Shown: in pieces, positions 6,879-21,385 of the stretch
Position numbering within the stretch: the stretch's first letter is position 1
How the letters are laid out: every line of letters begins with the position of its first letter
From: an uncultured Candidatus Saccharibacteria bacterium
GTDB lineage: Bacteria; Patescibacteriota; Minisyncoccia; Phycocordibacterales; JAKAEA01
Length of the DNA: 64,000 nt
Reading direction: 5' to 3'
Assembly (NCBI GenBank): GCA_964577595.1
Contig: CAZNZK010000004.1
Location: 27,294-91,293 of the forward strand
Program-made: the position numbers and the translations under genes
The notes under the pieces: generated by a model
The model's database searches: none
Seen by the model: the letters and a program-made list of their open reading frames with translations, nothing else
What the model was told of the DNA's origin: nothing

Positions 6879-8477
6879 TTATTTTTCTACGATAATAAAA
6901 GCTTCTAAGCGGTCGCCAGGCACAATGTCAAACTTTGATTCCACCATGGCGCCGAATTCCTGACCTTCCGGGATTTCGGTGGCTTTGGTTTTCTGACGCT
7001 GCAGTTCGCGCACTCGGCCGCGGCCGATTTCAAAGTCGCGGCGCATAATTTTTACTTCCGCGCCGAGTTTCATGAGACCTTTTTCCACGCGGCCGCCGAG
7101 GATCTGTTTGTCTTTTGCGCGACTGAAAAGTTTGAGGACTTTGGCGGTGCCGGTGGGCTCCTCCACTTTCATTTTTGGTACCTGATTTACCGCGTGTTCG
7201 CCGAGCCATTCGGAAAGCTTGTAAATAATGTCAAAAAGCTGGATGTTGACGCCACTATTTTGGCTCATGCCTTTGGCGGCACTACCGACACCAACACCGA
7301 AACCGAGAATAATTGCTTTTTTATCGGACAGGGCGGTTTTTATATCGCTTTCGTTAACATCGCCGATGCCGCTACTGACGACTTTGATAGTAAGGCGGTC
7401 GTGGTGGATTTTTGCCACTTCTTGTTTTAAAGCATCCAAGCCGCCGACGTCAGCGGCTTTGAGAATGAGGGGCAGAGAACCAACAGGCATTTCTTCGGCG
7501 GGTTCGGTGGTTGTTCCAGTAGCAGTAACAGCCGCTGGCTTAGCGCTTGGCCTCATCACTCGCGGTTTTTGTTCCGAACGCTTATTTTTTTCAGTTTCAA
7601 TGAATACCTCAGCTTCTTTCTTTGAATCAAATGTTTGAAATGGGGAACCGACGGGTGGTAATTCGCTCCAACCGAAAAGGCGCACAGGGCTTGAGAAGCT
7701 TGCCTCTTTTATAGGAGCGCCAGCGGTGGTTTCCATGACACGCACTGGGGTGGAGGCGAGGCCGGCGACAATAGTGGTCCCAGTGCGGATGGTGCCGTTC
7801 TTAATAATAAGCGTGGCAGCAATGCCTTTTTTGCGGTCTATGGCCGCGTCAACGATAATGCCGGTAGCCGGCACATTTGCGTCGCCAGTGAGCGCGGCAA
7901 GGTCGGCGGTCAAATCCACCATGTCCAAAAGCTCGGGCACGCCTTGGCCAGTTTTGGCCGAAATAGCTACCCAGGAGACGTCGCCACCGTAGCCTTCAAC
8001 ATAAATGTCATTTTCGGCGAGATTGGTTTTGGTGCGCTCTACGCTGGCGCCCTCTTTGTCTATCTTATTGATGGCAACAATAAAAGGGATTTTAGCGGTA
8101 CGGATAGCGTCGCGAGCTTCAATAGTTTGCGGGCGGACGCCATCTTCGGCGGAAACAACTAAAATGGCAATGTCGGCAACATTAGCACCGCGCGAACGGA
8201 TGGCGGAAAAAGCTTCATGACCAGGCGTATCCAAAAAAGTAATACGACGCAGAACAGCTTCTGCACCATTGCCGCCAGTGGCGGTGCGCTCCACTTCATA
8301 AGCCGAAACTTTCTGGGTAATGCCGCCAGCTTCGCCGTCAACGGTGTTGGTGCGGCGAATGTAATCCAAGAGGGTGCTTTTGCCGTGGTCAACGTGCCCT
8401 AAAACCGCCACCACCGGAGGGCGGGATAGGGTGCCGTTGTTGGCAATTTTTATGGTGTTTTTATTTTTTGTTGGCAT
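6879..8477 (-). CDS. infB: Translation initiation factor IF-2 (short form)
   Basis: G1 motif VAVLGHVDHGKSTLLD, DTPGH, NKID. It has domain II and the C-terminal domains but lacks the long N-terminal region. Confidence 0.9.
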   Translation of the reverse strand: MPTKNKNTIKIANNGTLSRPPVVAVLGHVDHGKSTLLDYIRRTNTVDGEAGGITQKVSAYEVERTATGGNGAEAVLRRITFLDTPGHEAFSAIRSRGANVADIAILVVSAEDGVRPQTIEARDAIRTAKIPFIVAINKIDKEGASVERTKTNLAENDIYVEGYGGDVSWVAISAKTGQGVPELLDMVDLTADLAALTGDANVPATGIIVDAAIDRKKGIAATLIIKNGTIRTGTTIVAGLASTPVRVMETTAGAPIKEASFSSPVRLFGWSELPPVGSPFQTFDSKKEAEVFIETEKNKRSEQKPRVMRPSAKPAAVTATGTTTEPAEEMPVGSLPLILKAADVGGLDALKQEVAKIHHDRLTIKVVSSGIGDVNESDIKTALSDKKAIILGFGVGVGSAAKGMSQNSGVNIQLFDIIYKLSEWLGEHAVNQVPKMKVEEPTGTAKVLKLFSRAKDKQILGGRVEKGLMKLGAEVKIMRRDFEIGRGRVRELQRQKTKATEIPEGQEFGAMVESKFDIVPGDRLEAFIIVEK

Positions 8478-14676: not shown

Positions 14677-15525
14677 ATGACCCATTGCTATCTGAACGGA
14701 AAAATCATGCCACTAGCCGAAGCGAAGGTTGGCATTTTAGATATCGGCCTTTTGCGTGGCTACGCTATTTATGAGGCCTTGGCTGTTTACAATGGCCGGC
14801 CTTTTATGTTTGACGACCATATGGCCCGCTTTCGCCGCTCTGCCGAGGCCATGCGGCTCACTATTCCCGCCACGAATCAAAAAATTGCCGAGGCCATTTC
14901 CGCGCTCTTGAAGCGCAACAAGCTTACTGATGCTCGCATTAAATTTCTTCTTACGGGTGGCGAAACGGTTGATGGTATTGACTACAAGGGCGACAAGCTT
15001 ACGTTCTTTATCCTAGCCGAACCCTTTGACCCGTTGCCTAAAAAAATAAAGGATCATGGTTGCACGCTTATTAGTTACGAATTTCAGCGTCAATTTCCCG
15101 AATATAAAACGTCCAATTACATCACGGGCGTGTGGATGCAGCCGGCACGTAGAAAAGCTGGCGCGCTTGAAATACTCTTTACGTGGCAGGGCAGGGTGTT
15201 GGAGTGTTCCACCAGTAATTTTTTCATCGTTAAAAACGGGGCCATTATTACGGCCGCCCGGGACATTCTTTCCGGTATTACCCGCAAAGCCGTTTTGCGG
15301 TTGGCCAAGCACTCCGGCATGAAAGTGGAAGAGCGTGACCTCGGCGTAAGTGAGTTGGCCACTGCTGACGAAGCCTTCATTACTTCTAGTTTTAAGGAGA
15401 TAGTGCCGGTTATAAAAATAGACAACGTTACTATCGGCAACGGCAAACCGGGGGTGACTACTAAGAAATTAGCCACACTTTTTGAACACCACGTTGCAGA
15501 AGTCGCTTCAAGCTCGGTGGCTTAA
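14677..15525 (+). CDS. Class IV aminotransferase (branched-chain amino acid / D-amino acid aminotransferase family)
   Basis: YLNGKIMPLAEAKVGILDIGLLRGYAIYE… is a typical fold-type IV N-terminus. Start at ATG 14677 downstream of the tRNA. Confidence 0.8.
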   Translation: MTHCYLNGKIMPLAEAKVGILDIGLLRGYAIYEALAVYNGRPFMFDDHMARFRRSAEAMRLTIPATNQKIAEAISALLKRNKLTDARIKFLLTGGETVDGIDYKGDKLTFFILAEPFDPLPKKIKDHGCTLISYEFQRQFPEYKTSNYITGVWMQPARRKAGALEILFTWQGRVLECSTSNFFIVKNGAIITAARDILSGITRKAVLRLAKHSGMKVEERDLGVSELATADEAFITSSFKEIVPVIKIDNVTIGNGKPGVTTKKLATLFEHHVAEVASSSVA

Positions 15526-15581
15526 ACACTTGCCTTTTTTGCCAAGGTGTAGTATTTTTACGTCTCTAATCGTTTCAATAT

Positions 15582-15740
15582 ATGTCCCAAGATCGCCTCA
15601 TAAAACTCGCCTGCCAAACCTGTAAACGTATCAATTACTGGTCTAGCAAAAACAAGCGCAAAGTAGAGCGCAAAATTGAGCTGAAAAAATTCTGCAAATG
15701 GTGTGGCAAGAAGACCACTCACAAAGAAGTTAAGAAATAA
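15582..15740 (+). CDS. rpmG: 50S ribosomal protein L33
   Basis: 52-aa MSQDRLIKLACQTCKRINYWSSKNKRKVERKIELKKFCKWCGKKTTHKEVKK with a CxxC…CxxC zinc ribbon. It is not in the ORF track because it is short. Confidence 0.8.
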   Translation: MSQDRLIKLACQTCKRINYWSSKNKRKVERKIELKKFCKWCGKKTTHKEVKK

Positions 15741-15793
15741 TTCGCACTTCTTATTTCAAAGAAAAACGGCTGGCCTTGGGGCCAGCCGCGCGG

Positions 15794-16576
15794 TTATTCG
15801 CATTCCAGAAATTGTTTGAGCGATGGTCGCAAGCGGAGTAATTGCAGGGTGCTCCGGTGGATTTGTCGTACGAGCGATTCGCTGATGCCGAGCATTTCCG
15901 CCGTTTCTTTTACTTTCAGGTGTTCATAATAGCGGAGGATGAGTACTCTCCGGCTTCGTAGGTCAATACCCGAGAAGATGTGCCGAGAAGAATCTTCCAG
16001 GACAAGCCTTTGGTCGGGAGGTGCCTCTCGGTAATCTGCCGTTAGGTAGGAACTTCGTTGGTTTTCCGATTCTTCCGAAGAGCACACTATGTGGCTCATG
16101 AGCGGAAGCTGGTGTGTGCCGGAGGCGTATAGAGCTTTAAACGCCGCGGCGGGCAAGCCCAACTCTTCGTGCAATTCTTCAAAGTCCGGCTCGCGTCCCG
16201 AGCGCATTTTAAATGTGTTTCGTGCGGTTTCAATGCGCGTGTTACGTCGCCGAGCCACCACTGATACCCAGTCACACGCCCTCATTTGGTCAAGCATGGC
16301 GCCGCGAATGCGTTGGCTTGCGTACGTCTCAAAACGTACGCCCCGGTTTTGGTCGAAAGCCTGTATTGCTTTTCGGAGGCCGAGTATCCCAACTGAGTAT
16401 AAGTCGTCCTTATCTATAACGGCCTGCTCAGACAGGCGGGTATACATAACGCGAGCGAGAGTTCGAGCAAGTGGCGCGTAGTGCACGATAAGCTCGTTGC
16501 ACAACGCATTGGTTCTTTTGGCGCGATAACGGTTCCATACCTCCTGGATGGGTACTGCGGTTTTAGGCGTGCTCAT
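15794..16576 (-). CDS. RNA polymerase sigma factor (sigma-70 family, alternative/FliA-SigB-like size class)
   Basis: 260 aa with region 2 (DLYSVGILGLRKAIQAFDQNRGVRFETYASQRIRGAM), region 3, and a region 4 HTH (ETAEMLGISESLVRQIHRSTLQLLR). Confidence 0.8.
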   Translation of the reverse strand: MSTPKTAVPIQEVWNRYRAKRTNALCNELIVHYAPLARTLARVMYTRLSEQAVIDKDDLYSVGILGLRKAIQAFDQNRGVRFETYASQRIRGAMLDQMRACDWVSVVARRRNTRIETARNTFKMRSGREPDFEELHEELGLPAAAFKALYASGTHQLPLMSHIVCSSEESENQRSSYLTADYREAPPDQRLVLEDSSRHIFSGIDLRSRRVLILRYYEHLKVKETAEMLGISESLVRQIHRSTLQLLRLRPSLKQFLECE

Positions 16577-16708
16577 ACACTACTCCTTTTTGTAGGTACA
16601 ATTTTTAAAAGTCTGCGCTTAGGATACTCCAGCAATTTTTGTTTGGCAATATTAAGGAGGCTTCGCCCGGCAATTGCCTTTAGTGAACGGTCGTTCTATT
16701 ATTGGGTG

Positions 16709-17893
16709 ATGGAACCGCTTGCGTCTAAAATACGGCCGAAAAATTTGGGGGATTTTGTGGGGCAGGAGCATTTGGTGGGGGCAGGGAAGCCGCTGGCTAT
16801 TGCGGTGGCTGAGAAGCATTTGTTCTCATTTATTCTGTGGGGCCCGCCGGGGACGGGCAAAACCACGCTGGCGCGTATTTATGCCAATGCTTTGGACGCG
16901 CATCTTTTTGAGCTCTCGGCTGTTTCCGCGGGCAAGGATGACATTCGCGCTATTGTTGAGGACAGGAGTATTTTAGATCAGCGGCCCAAGCTCTTGTTTT
17001 TAGACGAAATTCACCGTTTTAATAAAGCTCAGCAGGATTTTCTGTTGCCGTTTGTGGAAAGCGGCGTGCTCACGCTCATCGGCGCGACCACCGAGAACCC
17101 AAGCTTTGAAGTCATCCCGGCGCTCCTTTCGCGCTGTCGTGTTTTTATTTTGAATGAGCTTTCTGAGGCAAATGTAGAGAAAATTATCGTGCGCGCGGCC
17201 AAAGAAGTCAAAATTAAAATCTTGAAAGAGGCACGCACGTGGCTGGCCAACATGGCCAATGGCGACGCCCGCCAGGCCATTACGGTGCTGGAAAATGCCC
17301 ACCAGCTTTATGGCGACAAAATCACCGTAGAGGCACTTAGGGAAACTATTCAAAATAAATTCTTGCGTTTTGATAAAAAAGGCGAGGAGCACTACAACGT
17401 CATCAGTGCGTTCATAAAAAGTATGCGGGCCAGCAATGCCGACGCTGCGCTCTATTATTTGGCGCGGATGCTGGACGCCGGCGAAGACCCAAAATTTATC
17501 GCCCGCAGAATGGTTATTTTTGCCTCGGAAGACATTGGCCTAGCCGCGCCCACCGCCCTTGTGGTGGCCAACGACGTATTCAGGGCGGTAGAAACCATTG
17601 GTATGCCTGAATGTGCCATCAACCTGGCTCATGGCGTTTCCTATCTCGCTGGGGCGCCTAAGGACCGGAGCTCCTATAACGCCCTTCAGGCCGCCACCAG
17701 CGACGTTAAAAAGTATGGCAACTTGCCCGTGCCTCTACGCTTGCGCAATGCGCCTACCAAGCTCATGAAAGAAATTGGCTATGGCGAAGGCTATGAAAAA
17801 TACAGCAAAGAAAGTTTTTTGCCCGATAAAATTAAAGATAACGTCTACCTCAAACGGCCGCCACAGACCCCCAAGAAAAAGGGGAATAAATAG
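16709..17893 (+). CDS. rarA: Replication-associated recombination protein A (AAA+ ATPase RarA/MgsA)
   Basis: MEPLASKIRPKNLGDFVGQEHL…LWGPPGTGKTTLARIYA…; start at ATG 16709. Confidence 0.85.
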   Translation: MEPLASKIRPKNLGDFVGQEHLVGAGKPLAIAVAEKHLFSFILWGPPGTGKTTLARIYANALDAHLFELSAVSAGKDDIRAIVEDRSILDQRPKLLFLDEIHRFNKAQQDFLLPFVESGVLTLIGATTENPSFEVIPALLSRCRVFILNELSEANVEKIIVRAAKEVKIKILKEARTWLANMANGDARQAITVLENAHQLYGDKITVEALRETIQNKFLRFDKKGEEHYNVISAFIKSMRASNADAALYYLARMLDAGEDPKFIARRMVIFASEDIGLAAPTALVVANDVFRAVETIGMPECAINLAHGVSYLAGAPKDRSSYNALQAATSDVKKYGNLPVPLRLRNAPTKLMKEIGYGEGYEKYSKESFLPDKIKDNVYLKRPPQTPKKKGNK

Positions 17894-17907
17894 CGCTTTT
17901 TGTGAAG

Positions 17908-17935
17908 TTGACGACATCGCCTCGTTTGCTATAAT
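17908..17935 (+). promoter_or_regulatory. Sigma-70-like promoter TTGACG-16 nt-TATAAT
   Basis: -35 at 17908..17913, 16-nt spacer, -10 at 17930..17935. The next downstream plus-strand ORF is the MGMT-family gene at 18535, separated from this promoter by the terminator at 18070..18102 and the minus-strand MazF-like gene. Confidence 0.55.
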
Positions 17936-17941
17936 TATAAG

Positions 17942-18102
17942 GACTTTTGGTTCTGGTGATTGTCCGTCGGATTATCATCACAGCCCCGCGGTGGCAGAAA
18001 TGCCGCCGCCGACAAAGTAAACAATGGCTTCGGCCCGACTCCATCGCAAGGTGGAGGCACACAAAGAGGAGACTCAAGGCAATAGGGCTTTGAGTCTTTT
18101 CG
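17942..18102 (+). ncRNA. Candidate ~160-nt structured small RNA (unknown family), bounded by the promoter above and an intrinsic terminator
   Basis: Helices capped by stable tetraloops: GCGGUGGCA-GAAA-UGCCGCCGC, GGC-UUCG-GCC, CCAUC-GCAA-GGUGG. The terminator AGACTCAA…TTGAGTCT+TTTTCG at 18070..18102 overlaps the 3' end of the convergent MazF-like gene. Confidence 0.4.
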
Positions 18103-18478
18103 TAAGTTCTTTAAATTCTTCTTCCTTCATAATACCTATTAGATTAGCCAAACGTTTTGTGTCAATTAATCGGAGTTGAGAAAGGATTACTGCGCCCCTA
18201 ATTAAATCTAGGGATGCAATGGGGAAATAATATTTTTGTAAATGGGTCGCCACCGCTCTATTCGAGGTTGTTACGGGTAGTACCCAGCATATATCTTTAC
18301 TAAACTTTCTAAAAATAATAATAGGGCGAGCAAATTCTTTCGAGTCCCCATCTTGTTCTGAGCCGATATTTATGCCGAGGTAGCAAAACCAAATTTCTCG
18401 TTCATGAAAAAATGGCCGATTCGTTTTCGCCTCAATAATTTTCTTCTTTTCGCTCCACTTTTGAAAATCTTTTTCCAC
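18074..18478 (-). CDS. MazF/PemK-family (CcdB/MazF fold) toxin-like protein with no adjacent antitoxin
   Basis: …REIWFCYLGINIGSEQDGDSKEFARPIIIFRKFS…ICWVLPVTTS…ILSQLRLID… parallels E. coli MazF (GDLIWVDFDPTKGSEQAGHRPAVVLS…CLCVPCTTQ…ADQVKSI). It is paralogous to 56725..57078. Confidence 0.55.
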   Translation of the reverse strand: MEKDFQKWSEKKKIIEAKTNRPFFHEREIWFCYLGINIGSEQDGDSKEFARPIIIFRKFSKDICWVLPVTTSNRAVATHLQKYYFPIASLDLIRGAVILSQLRLIDTKRLANLIGIMKEEEFKELTKRLKALLP

Positions 18479-18534
18479 CGTGCTACGCTAGCATGCGGGA
18501 GTTAAAATTCTCATCAATTTTTCTTAAATCTTCT

Positions 18535-18837
18535 ATGAAATCGTTCAAAGAAAAAGTCTACGCGCTCGCGCAAAAAATTCCAGCCGGAAAAGTGGCCACG
18601 TATGGTCAGCTTGCTACGATGGCGGGCAATTTCAAGGCGGCACGGGCAGTGGGGGCTCTCATGAGGCATAATCCCGACAATAAACTCGTTCCATGCCACC
18701 GCGTTGTAGCTGCGAATGGGGTATTAACAGGCTTCGCTTTTGGCGGCATCGTAGTTAAGAAGAAGAAACTTAAAAAGGAAGGAGTTGTTTTTAACGGCGA
18801 GCGCGTCAACGTGGCAATTTCTGGTTGGCGTCAATAA
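18535..18837 (+). CDS. MGMT-family protein (6-O-methylguanine-DNA methyltransferase DNA-binding/active-site domain)
   Basis: …VATYGQLATMAGNFKAARAVGALMRHNPDNKLVPCHRVVAANGVLTGFAFG… with the PCHRV active-site motif. Start at ATG 18535. Confidence 0.7.
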   Translation: MKSFKEKVYALAQKIPAGKVATYGQLATMAGNFKAARAVGALMRHNPDNKLVPCHRVVAANGVLTGFAFGGIVVKKKKLKKEGVVFNGERVNVAISGWRQ

Positions 18838-18897
18838 TTCCATATCGTTTTCAAAATGCCTGTTTTTTGCTACTATCAGGCTCGTAGCAAAGCATCT

Positions 18898-18969
18898 GGG
18901 CCTATAGTTTCAATGGTAAAACGACGGTCTCCAAAACCGCAGTTCCCCGTTCGAGTCGGGGTGGGCCCG
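18898..18969 (+). tRNA. tRNA-Trp (anticodon CCA)
   Basis: GGGCCTA acceptor, D-arm GTTT-CAATGGTA-AAAC, anticodon loop CTCCAAA, T-arm CCCCG-TTCGAGT-CGGGG, 3' TGGGCCC-G. Confidence 0.8.
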
Positions 18970-18984
18970 CAGTGAAGCACCACT
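18964..18984. repeat. Left copy of the 21-bp direct repeat ggcccgcagtgaagcaccact (last 6 nt of tRNA-Trp plus 15 nt downstream)
   Basis: Exact match to 22071..22091. Confidence 0.8.
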
Positions 18985-19184
18985 TTCAGTCCTGATAATT
19001 AATTTCTATGTCGCACGAGAGCGGCCGGAATCGTATTTCCGGACATTCCTTGCGCGTTATTGTAATTCAAAATATACTAGTCACATTGGAATTACATGTT
19101 TCTGAATTCGCATACACTTGAATTAGAGATAGTCTAATTCTAATCGATTTGAATTAAATTAACGCTAATTCTAATGCACTAAAT

Positions 19185-20318
19185 ATGGCTGAAAATAAGG
19201 CTAAAACACCATTTGATTTACCCAAACTTCCACCTTTAATTGATTATAAGGAGCTGGTTGAACATATAAGCTCTGCTCATGCGGCGTTGGCTCGGTTAGA
19301 TGAAATGCTTAAACACGTTAGCAACCCAGCTCTTATAGAAAGGACGTTTCTTACTCGCGAAGCTGTTTTGAGCTCTCAAATTGAGGGTACACAAGCAACT
19401 CTTGAAGAGGTTATGAAAAAAGAAGCGGAAGATGGAAAAAAGATTTCTGAAACGACGGAAAAAGCTCGCGATATTCAAGAAATCATTAATTATCGTGACG
19501 CTTTACGCGAAGGGGTGGAAATTATAAATCAAGGAGAATTTCTCGCGGAAAACAATGTTAAAAAACTCCACAGAATTCTTCTTGAATCGGTGCGTGGAAA
19601 AACCAGAGCGCCAGGTGAATTTAGACGAGAGCAAGTTTATATTGCACCGCCAGGAACTCCCATGTCGGAAGCCGGGTATATTCCTCCAGTACCACAAGAG
19701 GTTCCGGAGCTGTATGGAAATTTTGATAAATATCTCAATACTGCAACATCTGAAAGGGACGTGCTCGTGCAAATCGCAATTTCCCACTATCAATTTGAGG
19801 CAATTCACCCATTTAAAGATGGTAATGGCCGGATGGGGCGTCTGTTGATACCTTTGTTTTTGTATCAAAGGAAAATTATCGCTCGACCACTTATGTATAT
19901 TAGTCAATATTTTGAAGAACACCGACGGGATTATTACGACTTACTTGCGGATGTTAGCTATAAGGATGCTTGGATACCATGGCTACGTTTTTTTCTGAAC
20001 GGTTTAAAAGAACAAGCTCTGGATGCATGCCAATTGGCAGGTAAAATTATCACGCTCCGTGATGAGTATCAAAAACATCTCGCTGAATTTAATTCGACAT
20101 ATGCCTTTAATTTACTGGATGCTATCTTCGCCAGGCCAATTTTTACGGTTGTCAAAATTCAAGAAAGATCGGGAATCAAGGTTTACCAGACTCTATTAAA
20201 TTTGGTTGAAAAGTTTGTTGACGCGGGGATTTTGCAAGATTCCACTCCTGATAAAAAAAGAAATAAAATATATGAGTTCAAGCCCCTCCTAAAACTGTTG
20301 GAGAATAAAAAGGAGTAA
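19185..20318 (+). CDS. Fic family protein (AMPylase/Fido domain)
   Basis: Fic motif HPFKDGNGRMGRLLIPLFL, 377 aa. Confidence 0.85.
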   Translation: MAENKAKTPFDLPKLPPLIDYKELVEHISSAHAALARLDEMLKHVSNPALIERTFLTREAVLSSQIEGTQATLEEVMKKEAEDGKKISETTEKARDIQEIINYRDALREGVEIINQGEFLAENNVKKLHRILLESVRGKTRAPGEFRREQVYIAPPGTPMSEAGYIPPVPQEVPELYGNFDKYLNTATSERDVLVQIAISHYQFEAIHPFKDGNGRMGRLLIPLFLYQRKIIARPLMYISQYFEEHRRDYYDLLADVSYKDAWIPWLRFFLNGLKEQALDACQLAGKIITLRDEYQKHLAEFNSTYAFNLLDAIFARPIFTVVKIQERSGIKVYQTLLNLVEKFVDAGILQDSTPDKKRNKIYEFKPLLKLLENKKE

Positions 20319-20368
20319 ATAAACCAGGTGCTATCCGTGGATTTTCAGCTCAATTGTGGCTTAAAATA

Positions 20369-20397
20369 GTTCTAATACTGTCCCATACGGCCCGCAG
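20369..20397. repeat. Internal att-like repeat gttctaatactgtcccatacggcccgcag
   Basis: Matches 22051..22079 with 2 mismatches over 29 nt and shares the ggcccgcag core with the tRNA-Trp 3' end. Confidence 0.7.
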
Positions 20398-20491
20398 CAA
20401 GATAGTGTTTAATTGTGTGTAATGTAGTGATTTTATGAGGTAATGCATGGTCGTAAGCCGACCTCGTTTTACAGTAACTGAGGTTGAATAA

Positions 20492-21385
20492 ATGCCCTCA
20501 ATCTACTATAATTCGGGTATGGAAAAACCTAGTCTTGCGTCAGATGCGGCTCTCGCAAGCACACCAGTCGAAAAGGCGATTGAAAACGTGCACGCAGATG
20601 CTGAGGTGACTAAGGACACACGTCCTGACATGGATACCGAGGAAAAAATAACGCAGTTGTCTAAAAGTAAACTTGAATTAGGCTCAACAATTGATGATCT
20701 TGATTCAAGAATATCGCAACATACGCAATCATTACACAGTGTTCGGGCGGCGCTCGACTTGCCAGAGCGGGCTGTGACTAACGACCCCGGATCGGTTGAG
20801 CTTAAGGACTTGATTGATGCGAAGAAAAAAGCTGAAGATAAACTCGAAAAAAAAGATGCATCGTTGACTAGCGAAGAAATGAAAGCAGAAGATACTGAAC
20901 AAGAAAGATTGAACAACAAAAAGATACAAGAGGGCTTATATTACTGCTCTCAATCAACACAAAAATTTGCAAACACATTACACGAACGAGTTGAGAGTGG
21001 TTTTGATTCCCTTGTTGATGATCAAGGACTTTCTGCAATTGATATTGCAACTGGGGGTTTAGATCAGGTAGGTAGTGAAAAAGAGATTGACTCTGCTCAA
21101 TTGCAAAAAACAGTAAGTACGCTGTATCAAGGTTTAGATGCTTTTGGGCGAGCGGAATCTGACAATACCCATCCCGCCGATAGTGCCGAAAGTCTGGAGT
21201 CCATGGCTTATGCGTTGAAGTCACTGCACGAAGGTGTGGGTGTAGTAAAGAACGCACTCAGTGTGCAAGGAAAAAAGTATCTTGATTCAGTAAATATCCT
21301 GCAAAAAATAGAGGATGAGGTGATTCCGCCAAGATACGATTTTCTGGTCAGAAAAATCAATGTGCTTAATGAGTATTATAGATAA
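20492..21385 (+). CDS. Hypothetical acidic, predicted-helical protein
   Basis: 297 aa, rich in E/D/K. No recognisable motif. Confidence 0.45.
   Translation: MPSIYYNSGMEKPSLASDAALASTPVEKAIENVHADAEVTKDTRPDMDTEEKITQLSKSKLELGSTIDDLDSRISQHTQSLHSVRAALDLPERAVTNDPGSVELKDLIDAKKKAEDKLEKKDASLTSEEMKAEDTEQERLNNKKIQEGLYYCSQSTQKFANTLHERVESGFDSLVDDQGLSAIDIATGGLDQVGSEKEIDSAQLQKTVSTLYQGLDAFGRAESDNTHPADSAESLESMAYALKSLHEGVGVVKNALSVQGKKYLDSVNILQKIEDEVIPPRYDFLVRKINVLNEYYR

Follow-up and report, generated by a model that had tools for sequence, protein, structure and literature searches.

A small RNA (sRNA) was predicted in a 64,000-nucleotide stretch of DNA from an uncultured Candidatus Saccharibacteria bacterium (contig CAZNZK010000004.1; the whole stretch is called the window, and its positions are used throughout), where it converges with a gene encoding a toxin of the MazF/PemK family. 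Judged by comparative sequence analysis, the sRNA belongs to a covarying RNA family that is new to Rfam. Our favored explanation, held tentatively, is that the region is a toxin-antitoxin-like module in which the sRNA acts as the RNA antitoxin of MazF, most likely at the protein level in a type III-like manner. The sRNA would most likely be the antidote of the toxin because it is always found tail-to-tail with a toxin gene that has no protein antidote. The features of the module in the window are the following.

17908 to 17935, plus strand: sRNA promoter, with the −35 box TTGACG at 17908-17913, a 16-nt spacer carrying TG at 17927-17928, and the −10 box TATAAT at 17930-17935
17942 to 18102, plus strand: predicted sRNA transcript of about 160 nt, with the putative transcription start site (TSS) 7 nt 3' of the −10 box
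17949 to 17985 (H1) and 17988 to 18009 (H2), plus strand: hairpins of a 5' extension, the GAAA loop of H2 lying at 17997-18000
18020 to 18025, plus strand: single-stranded leader AACAAU (family consensus ACAAAY), in most loci the 5' end of the RNA
18026 to 18035, plus strand: P1 hairpin GGC-UUCG-GCC, with the UUCG loop at 18029-18032
18039 to 18056, plus strand: P2, a 7-bp helix (CUCCAUC/GGUGGAG) with a GCAA tetraloop at 18046-18049
18070 to 18101, plus strand: P3 terminator hairpin and U-tract, with an 11-bp stem (18070-18080/18087-18097) and the loop AAUAGG
18074 to 18478, minus strand: MazF/PemK-family toxin gene, 134 amino acids (aa), GTG start
18485 to 18493, minus strand: putative toxin promoter read from the sequence, an extended −10 element (TGC-TAGCGT) 6 nt before the GTG, from which a leaderless toxin mRNA would follow

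The linkage between sRNA and toxin was assessed in 80 metagenome loci (L081 to L160) that were retrieved by toxin homology. In the great majority of these, the stretch corresponding to 18020-18109 was conserved directly at the 3' end of the toxin gene (nhmmer), as a unit consisting of a TTGACA/TGnTAnnnT promoter, about 7 nt, ACAAAY-GGCUUCGGCC-(CGA)-P2, an A-rich linker, and a hairpin with a U-run that is made from the last codons of the toxin gene (family C terminus LKALLP plus stop). As the two toxin loci without the exact motif bear sRNA units with variants of the P1 loop, the sRNA was present and convergent with a homologous toxin gene in 80/80 loci. A covariance model (CM) of the sRNA also had a convergent match at the toxin 3' end in 5/5 more distant toxin representatives, drawn from a whole-library search with a hidden Markov model (HMM) of the toxin (E ≤ 1e-10), in which the toxin subfamily comprised at least 1,654 clusters at 50% identity. 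Within 827 kb of unrelated Patescibacteria DNA there was one strong CM match (L024, 40.9 bits), and this was convergent with a diverged MazF-like open reading frame (ORF). The sRNA was the only conserved partner of the toxin in the loci examined, and a whole branch of "orphan" MazF genes may therefore have an RNA antitoxin that annotation has missed. A preliminary description of this DNA had proposed that the sRNA converges with, and may be related to, the MazF-like gene and that its terminator overlaps the last codons of that gene; the two were indeed linked in every locus examined, and 29 nt of the toxin coding sequence (CDS) lie inside the sRNA terminator in the window, related loci being alike. 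P3 serves as a bidirectional terminator in most loci (A-tract, hairpin, U-tract). Both of its arms (CUCAAAG...CCUUGAG) encode the near-invariant toxin C terminus LKALLP plus stop (alignment A1; 18074-18100 in the window), so that toxin C terminus and RNA structure constrain each other.

Covariation in homologous regions, which the preliminary description had named as a check on the sRNA, was found in a 44-sequence MAFFT alignment (A2) evaluated against 500 column shuffles. Standard base pairs made up 96.9% of the pair cells, versus 88.4% in the column shuffles and 26 to 59% with slid partners. Pairs that had changed on both sides numbered 14 (versus 7.0 in shuffles), the covariation score was 0.350 (versus 0.175), and 0/500 shuffles matched the observed value on any of five measures, the covariation score included. 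RNAalifold, run on A2, independently gave the same three-helix structure. P1 was invariant in 44/44 main-class sequences, and compensatory variants of P1 were found in distant members (GCC/GGC in L024, UCC/GGA in L225, and CGAC/GUCG in L224). Both-side changes occurred in 6/7 pairs of P2, together with swaps of its GNRA loop for UUCG, and compensatory changes occurred in 8/11 pairs of P3. G-U cells in P2 and P3 (about 45) far outnumbered A-C/C-A cells (3), which argues that the helices are optimized on the sRNA strand. The CM, built from A2, scored 80.1 bits at 18020-18100 and detected nothing else real in the window; in related loci it scored 76 to 99 bits on the sRNA strand versus 20 to 36 bits on the toxin strand, the latter owing to the palindromic terminator only.

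The promoter was conserved along with the structure. Across 72 loci, the T, A, and T of the −10 box were conserved at 90, 90, and 92%, respectively, and the TG at about 80%, and the fixed spacing places the TSS at the A of ACAAAY. In the leader, the three A's preceding Y-GG were conserved at 90 to 100%. That no functional RNA is made, the hairpin being the terminator of the toxin gene and the promoter and upstream helices being chance or DNA-level signals, would fit the palindromic terminator hairpin, which scores on the toxin strand too, and the finding that a single promoter-like site is not significant alone. However, P1 and P2 lie beyond the terminator of the toxin mRNA and still covary, the excess of G-U over A-C cells points to the sRNA strand, the promoter stands at a fixed distance in 72 loci, and the equivalent RNA of a Campylobacter jejuni plasmid (see below) has been detected experimentally. 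We give this explanation almost no credence and regard it as effectively refuted by the comparative data.

No family in Rfam 15 matched the window RNA at the gathering score or at an E value of ≤10. This bears out the preliminary description, in which the RNA could not be matched to signal recognition particle (SRP) RNA, 6S RNA, or transfer-messenger RNA (tmRNA) by eye; these three, and the Rfam pemK motif, were rejected as identities. A literature search found no description of the sRNA family.

For the window itself, the preliminary description had pointed to an unannotated sRNA that has a promoter and a terminator of its own, and its TTGACG-16-TATAAT element was recovered with 11/12 consensus matches plus the extended −10 TG, as the top-scoring site across 15000-21000. 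Shuffled sequences contained 8.4 ± 3.2 promoter-like sites with ≥9/12 matches, so that a lone site of this sort is within chance; the window promoter is, however, the positional homologue of the promoter present in all related loci. The minimum free energy of the predicted transcript (from 17941) was −71.8 kcal/mol, compared with −48.3 ± 4.1 kcal/mol for shuffled sequences (z = −5.7), and 0/200 shuffles equaled it. The transcript is predicted to fold into five hairpins, namely, H1, H2, P1, P2, and the terminal hairpin P3, and these include all three of the helices with GAAA, UUCG, and GCAA tetraloops previously noted, the long hairpin H1 being additional. The terminator had been described as an 8-bp stem plus T-run; the hairpin is there, but its stem comprises 11 bp and its U-tract is weak (UUUCG), and a simple terminator scan did not report P3.

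Of the predicted transcript, the 3' half (18020-18100) alone is conserved and forms the core of the family. The H1/H2 extension is itself structured (z = −4.1) but had no homologue in 80/80 related loci, with the CM score there never exceeding 4.8 bits, and is on this comparison specific to the genome. The usual length of the sRNA in related loci is about 80 nt, versus about 160 nt in the window genome, where the promoter is displaced 85 nt upstream and the inserted H1 and H2 separate it from the core. The extension may derive from a duplication of the P1-P2 module that has since degenerated; homology between the two was undetectable by CM.

The earlier remark had been that there is no plausible ORF; ORFs of 41 to 51 aa do overlap the sRNA, but a comparison of loci excluded coding. 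The candidate considered was a leaderless mRNA for a small protein starting at the ATG in AAATGGCTTCGG (MASARL...). This ORF (18024-18179, 51 aa) begins within the conserved core, its ATG being 4 nt from the usual TSS. It reads through the terminator and has no conserved stop, and it is noncoding because its ATG is replaced by ACG in 24/72 loci and its variable codons change at all three positions, nonsynonymously and with the base pairs kept. A small protein as the product is accordingly barely credible.

The toxin matched Pfam PF02452 (PemK) with an E value of 5e-8 and, in a profile search against the PDB, Bacillus subtilis MazF/EndoA with an E value of 5e-5. R51-P52 is invariant and T70 of the sequence PLTK is conserved at ≥90%, and both align with the catalytic region of B. 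subtilis MazF. The 50 best PDB matches of the AlphaFold2 (AF2) model in Foldseek were all MazF, Kid, or PemK structures, including MazF of Staphylococcus aureus, B. subtilis, Mycobacterium tuberculosis, and Escherichia coli; ToxN, AbiQ, and CptN were missing from these 50. On profile, alignment, and modeled fold, the toxin is a bona fide member of the MazF/PemK endoribonuclease family with its catalytic residues intact. None of the NCBIfam and PADLOC (defense-system) models was specific to it.

A protein antitoxin encoded upstream of the toxin was rejected, as none was conserved in the 80 loci: all-against-all BLAST of the upstream ORFs showed the upstream neighbors to be unrelated in all of them. 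The gaps upstream of the toxin genes are often <30 nt, and 14 nt separate the starts of the toxin gene and the divergent gene in the window. Many of the toxin genes (75 nt upstream, loci L081 to L160) have a TATAAT-like box 6 to 8 nt before the start and no Shine-Dalgarno sequence, which suggests that the toxin mRNAs are leaderless and weakly expressed. A strong sRNA promoter facing a weak toxin promoter, in an accessory two-gene unit, is the usual logic of toxin-antitoxin loci.

Relatives of RarA, the product of the preceding gene in the window, place the organism in the Patescibacteria (CPR, Paceibacterota-like). The sRNA travels with the toxin and not with RarA, as the sRNA adjoined RarA in none of 80 RarA loci and as the closest relative (L001, 86% RarA identity; 7180-7300) has a tRNA directly after RarA and lacks the sRNA/toxin segment. 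Conservation downstream of RarA was rejected as an explanation on these grounds (0/80 RarA loci; the whole segment absent from L001). In the window the tRNA lies at 18898-18969, and the segment with the sRNA and the MazF-like and O6-methylguanine-DNA methyltransferase (MGMT)-like genes is an indel, since it is absent between RarA and the tRNA in L001. Varied contexts and absence from the closest relative indicate, at the level of sequence, that the module is accessory and mobile. An origin in phages was rejected after a 16-mer scan of IMG/VR, in which none of 59 matches was convincing by CM and none had a MazF-like gene.

In annotated plasmids and phages, homologues of the toxin were found by tblastn only in Campylobacterota, namely, on the C. 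jejuni plasmid pVir (27% identity, E = 1e-6), on a Nitratiruptor plasmid (34%), on small Helicobacter suis plasmids, and in CJIE4 prophages. A convergent TGnTATAAT promoter and a multihairpin RNA ending at the toxin stop were present in 4/4 loci inspected (pVir, the Nitratiruptor plasmid, one H. suis plasmid, and one CJIE4 prophage). CM R1 had no match on any of these loci; the Nitratiruptor RNA shares an AUAAAU leader and a two-hairpin layout with the family, by eye only. The pVir RNA is CJpv3, a 77-nt transcript (minus strand, 31119-31043) between pVir0047 and pVir0048 that was detected by differential RNA sequencing (dRNA-seq) and Northern blotting (Dugar et al. 2013, Table S12; PMC3656092). 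Applied to pVir, the rule that places the TSS 7 nt after the −10 box gave exactly the published CJpv3 TSS. pVir0047 of C. jejuni 81-176 is, like the toxin in the window, a 134-aa MazF homologue (27% identity), with the N-terminal F-x-x-W-N-x-x-K-K helix in common and no protein antitoxin annotated beside it. CJpv3 is likewise convergent; it is transcribed from a TGnTATAAT promoter of its own, and 5 nt lie between its end and the toxin stop. It differs in being unrelated in sequence at the CM level and in forming three AU-rich hairpins instead of ACAAAY-P1-P2-terminator. Our literature search found no function assigned to the CJpv3/pVir0047 pair.

A validated type I system, CjrA/CjpT, is located on pVir according to papers that cite Shen et al. 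2016. CjrA might be either CJpv3 or CJpv2. CJpv2 (25268, plus strand; L232, pVir NC_008770 25228-25703) is antisense to unannotated small hydrophobic ORFs of 35 to 58 aa on the minus strand, and its locus is arranged like a classical type I toxin-antitoxin locus.

Conservation along the sRNA was compared with that of the toxin. The 19-nt 5' domain of the sRNA was 95% identical across loci, and identity in the toxin was 65% over the CDS, 45% at third codon positions, and 62% at the amino acid level. The longest run of the 5' domain complementary to the toxin mRNA averaged 7.94 nt (versus 7.75 nt in shuffles), at scattered positions, and RNAduplex energies were not better than those of shuffles. 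Pairing of the 5' domain with the toxin mRNA, either with its 5' region or with the entire CDS, was therefore rejected, the sole exception being L145, where a second copy of the sRNA lies over the toxin start. This copy (2897-2977 in L145, 50.6 bits) is on the sRNA strand, upstream of the toxin gene, and its promoter overlaps the first codons of the toxin; no second toxin gene is nearby, and the copy may be the remnant of a lost module. Antisense can account only for the terminator overlap of about 35 to 45 nt, as the overlap does not reach the 5' domain, for which the toxin mRNA holds no conserved complement. The cis-antisense relationship suggested in the preliminary description thus fits the terminator and not the most conserved part of the sRNA. 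Strong conservation without a complement in the mRNA argues for another sequence-specific partner of the 5' domain, probably the toxin protein.

A type III-like antidote would accommodate these observations as follows. The 5' domain (AAAY leader, P1 UUCG hairpin, short linker, and P2) would mimic a substrate and bind to the toxin protein, probably within the groove that binds RNA, and the bound toxin would stay inactive, as with type III RNA antitoxins. With a strong promoter for the sRNA and a toxin gene that is weak and leaderless, the RNA would stay in excess, and loss of sRNA synthesis would release the toxin. Through the shared bidirectional terminator, the 3' complementarity of about 35 to 45 nt may add a secondary antisense effect on the stability of the toxin mRNA. 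Binding of sRNA to toxin, processing, and toxicity are all steps that we infer.

Type III systems (ToxIN, CptIN, and TenpIN) resemble the module in having an endoribonuclease with a MazF/Kid-like fold, an RNA partner, and no protein antitoxin. Their toxins are MazF/Kid-like in structure and cut A-rich sites such as AA/AU or A/AAA (PMC5086642), and the best-conserved single-stranded element of the sRNA is AAAY, an A-rich motif (AAAU). Tandem modules are occasional in the present family, a clear one being found in L146 and a possibly degenerate one in the window. The differences are considerable. The toxin is Pfam PemK (PF02452) and its fold matches MazF, not ToxN, AbiQ, or CptN; almost all loci have a single two-hairpin unit, whereas type III RNAs consist of 2 to 5 tandem repeats of 36 to 45 nt; and type III loci run from a shared promoter through RNA repeats and terminator to the toxin on one strand, whereas the RNA here is convergent and has its own promoter in every locus.

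Several points weigh against the favored explanation. Binding to the protein is something we infer from the pattern of conservation, and the invariant 5' hairpin might have a different role, in stabilizing the RNA or in being recognized by a host factor. The sRNA is convergent and usually a single module, unlike the same-strand upstream repeats of type III loci under one promoter. The AF2 model of the toxin is moderate (pLDDT of 72). Furthermore, to our knowledge every convergent RNA antitoxin known so far is of type I, a point that speaks equally for the main rival, a type I-like antisense antitoxin. In that case the sRNA would pair with the 3' end of the toxin mRNA via the shared terminator region, by loop-loop contact, duplex formation, and decay by RNase III or a 3' exonuclease, like RatA/txpA, SR4/bsrG, and par RNA II/Fst, and the conserved 5' domain would merely stabilize the RNA or recruit a host factor.

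With the type I systems that overlap at the 3' end, the module does share convergent RNAs, a 3' overlap (29 nt of CDS plus the 3' untranslated region lie within the sRNA), a bidirectional terminator in most loci, an antitoxin promoter of its own, and the combination of a strong antitoxin and a weak toxin promoter. From what the citing papers report, a type I RNA antitoxin (CjrA) has moreover been validated on pVir, where no obvious terminator of the toxin mRNA precedes the sRNA gene, so that a longer overlap is possible there. However, the overlap in the present family consists of the self-folded terminator hairpin only, and the most strongly selected stretch of the sRNA (95% identity) falls outside it and finds no complement in the toxin mRNA. 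As the toxin mRNAs appear to be leaderless, pairing could not act by masking a Shine-Dalgarno sequence. At 134 aa and as a soluble RNase, the toxin also differs from type I toxins, which are membrane-acting peptides of <60 aa. Antisense control as the principal mechanism is for us a serious but, on balance, unlikely explanation.

Ranking third, and in our view improbable, is a partnership of RNase and RNA in which the sRNA is not an antitoxin but a substrate, cofactor, or regulator: the MazF-like enzyme might process the sRNA, the sRNA might guide the enzyme toward, or limit it to, particular cellular RNAs, or it might act in trans on other genes. Linkage is strict, and the 5' domain surpasses the toxin in conservation, which could mean that a partner or target is common to all hosts, and the module occurs at about 1 copy per Mb of sampled Patescibacteria DNA, which would also suit such a role. 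Against it, the enzyme belongs to a family of toxic RNases whose catalytic residues it retains, the loci encode no further inhibitor, the module is accessory, mobile, and missing from the closest relative, and a strong RNA promoter combined with a weak enzyme promoter is what toxin-antitoxin loci usually have. A second copy of the 5' domain was also not found within 3 mismatches in about 0.9 Mb of Patescibacteria DNA (80 RarA loci plus the window), a count that leaves out the IMG/VR loci, which were themselves selected by the motif. Mimicry of a cellular RNA by the 5' domain thus found no support in this 0.9 Mb.

Neither of the remaining RNA or protein precedents covers the module. MazF, the textbook toxin of type II, is defined by having MazE as its protein antidote. 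Type II MazEF and PemIK systems share with the module the fold and family of the toxin and the catalytic Arg and Thr, but no MazE or PemI gene is adjacent in the 80 loci. The pemK motif of Rfam (RF02913) takes its name from the pemK genes with which this RNA motif is associated, and it occurs upstream of them in Firmicutes. It is classed in Rfam as cis-regulatory and lies on the gene's own strand, whereas the present sRNA is convergent at the 3' end, and neither the window (E ≤ 10) nor any of 12 related loci (E ≤ 1) matched its CM. The module departs from the definition of type III (toxin family, repeats, and gene order), from that of type I in that its toxin is no small peptide, and from that of type II in having no MazE.

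Toxin-antitoxin systems with RNA antidotes are known; what is new here is a genuine MazF toxin combined with the convergent layout. It is possible, if far from assured, that at least two phyla, Patescibacteria and Campylobacterota, share a widespread class of modules in which a genuine MazF is neutralized at the protein level by a convergent substrate-mimic sRNA and not by MazE. Such a class would combine a type II toxin, a type III-style antidote, and a type I-style gene layout, blurring the three categories, and would represent a living connection from the MazF lineage to that of ToxN and an evolutionary bridge to the type III toxins. For the Patescibacteria, which are uncultured and whose regulatory RNAs are almost unknown, the gain is a well-supported RNA family absent from Rfam. 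The same reading suggests a concrete function for the uncharacterized CJpv3 on the virulence plasmid of C. jejuni, a culturable organism.

Variation in the number of modules was seen in a few loci. L146 (3377-3484) carries two P1-P2 modules in tandem before a single terminator, a module of the "CCCC-GUAA-GGGG" class being followed by one of the main class, and is the sole clear repeat array seen. Two toxin genes stand in tandem in each of L115, L121, L130, L102, L140, and L153. In L115, L121, and L130, each toxin gene has its own convergent sRNA, and the paired sRNAs differ in the class of P2 and linker, an arrangement that is consistent with orthogonal cognate pairs.

The surroundings of the module in the window were also compared with those in L001. 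The region 17900-18850 amounts to about 950 bp extra relative to L001 and includes a gene for a 114-aa protein with an MGMT DNA-binding domain (18493-18837). A Fic-domain gene (19185-20318) comes after the tRNA, so that the area looks like a small variable island. The mechanically called RarA/MgsA ORF (16481-17893) starts with the GTG at 16481 (470 aa), whereas homologues start at the Met at 16706 (MEPLASKIRP...), and going by these homologues the real gene probably encodes 395 aa. RarA is adjoined by a gene for a sigma-70-family factor that has just regions 2 and 4 (FliA/sigma-28-like; 15794-16576, minus strand), and the same neighborhood is found in Logan contig L161.

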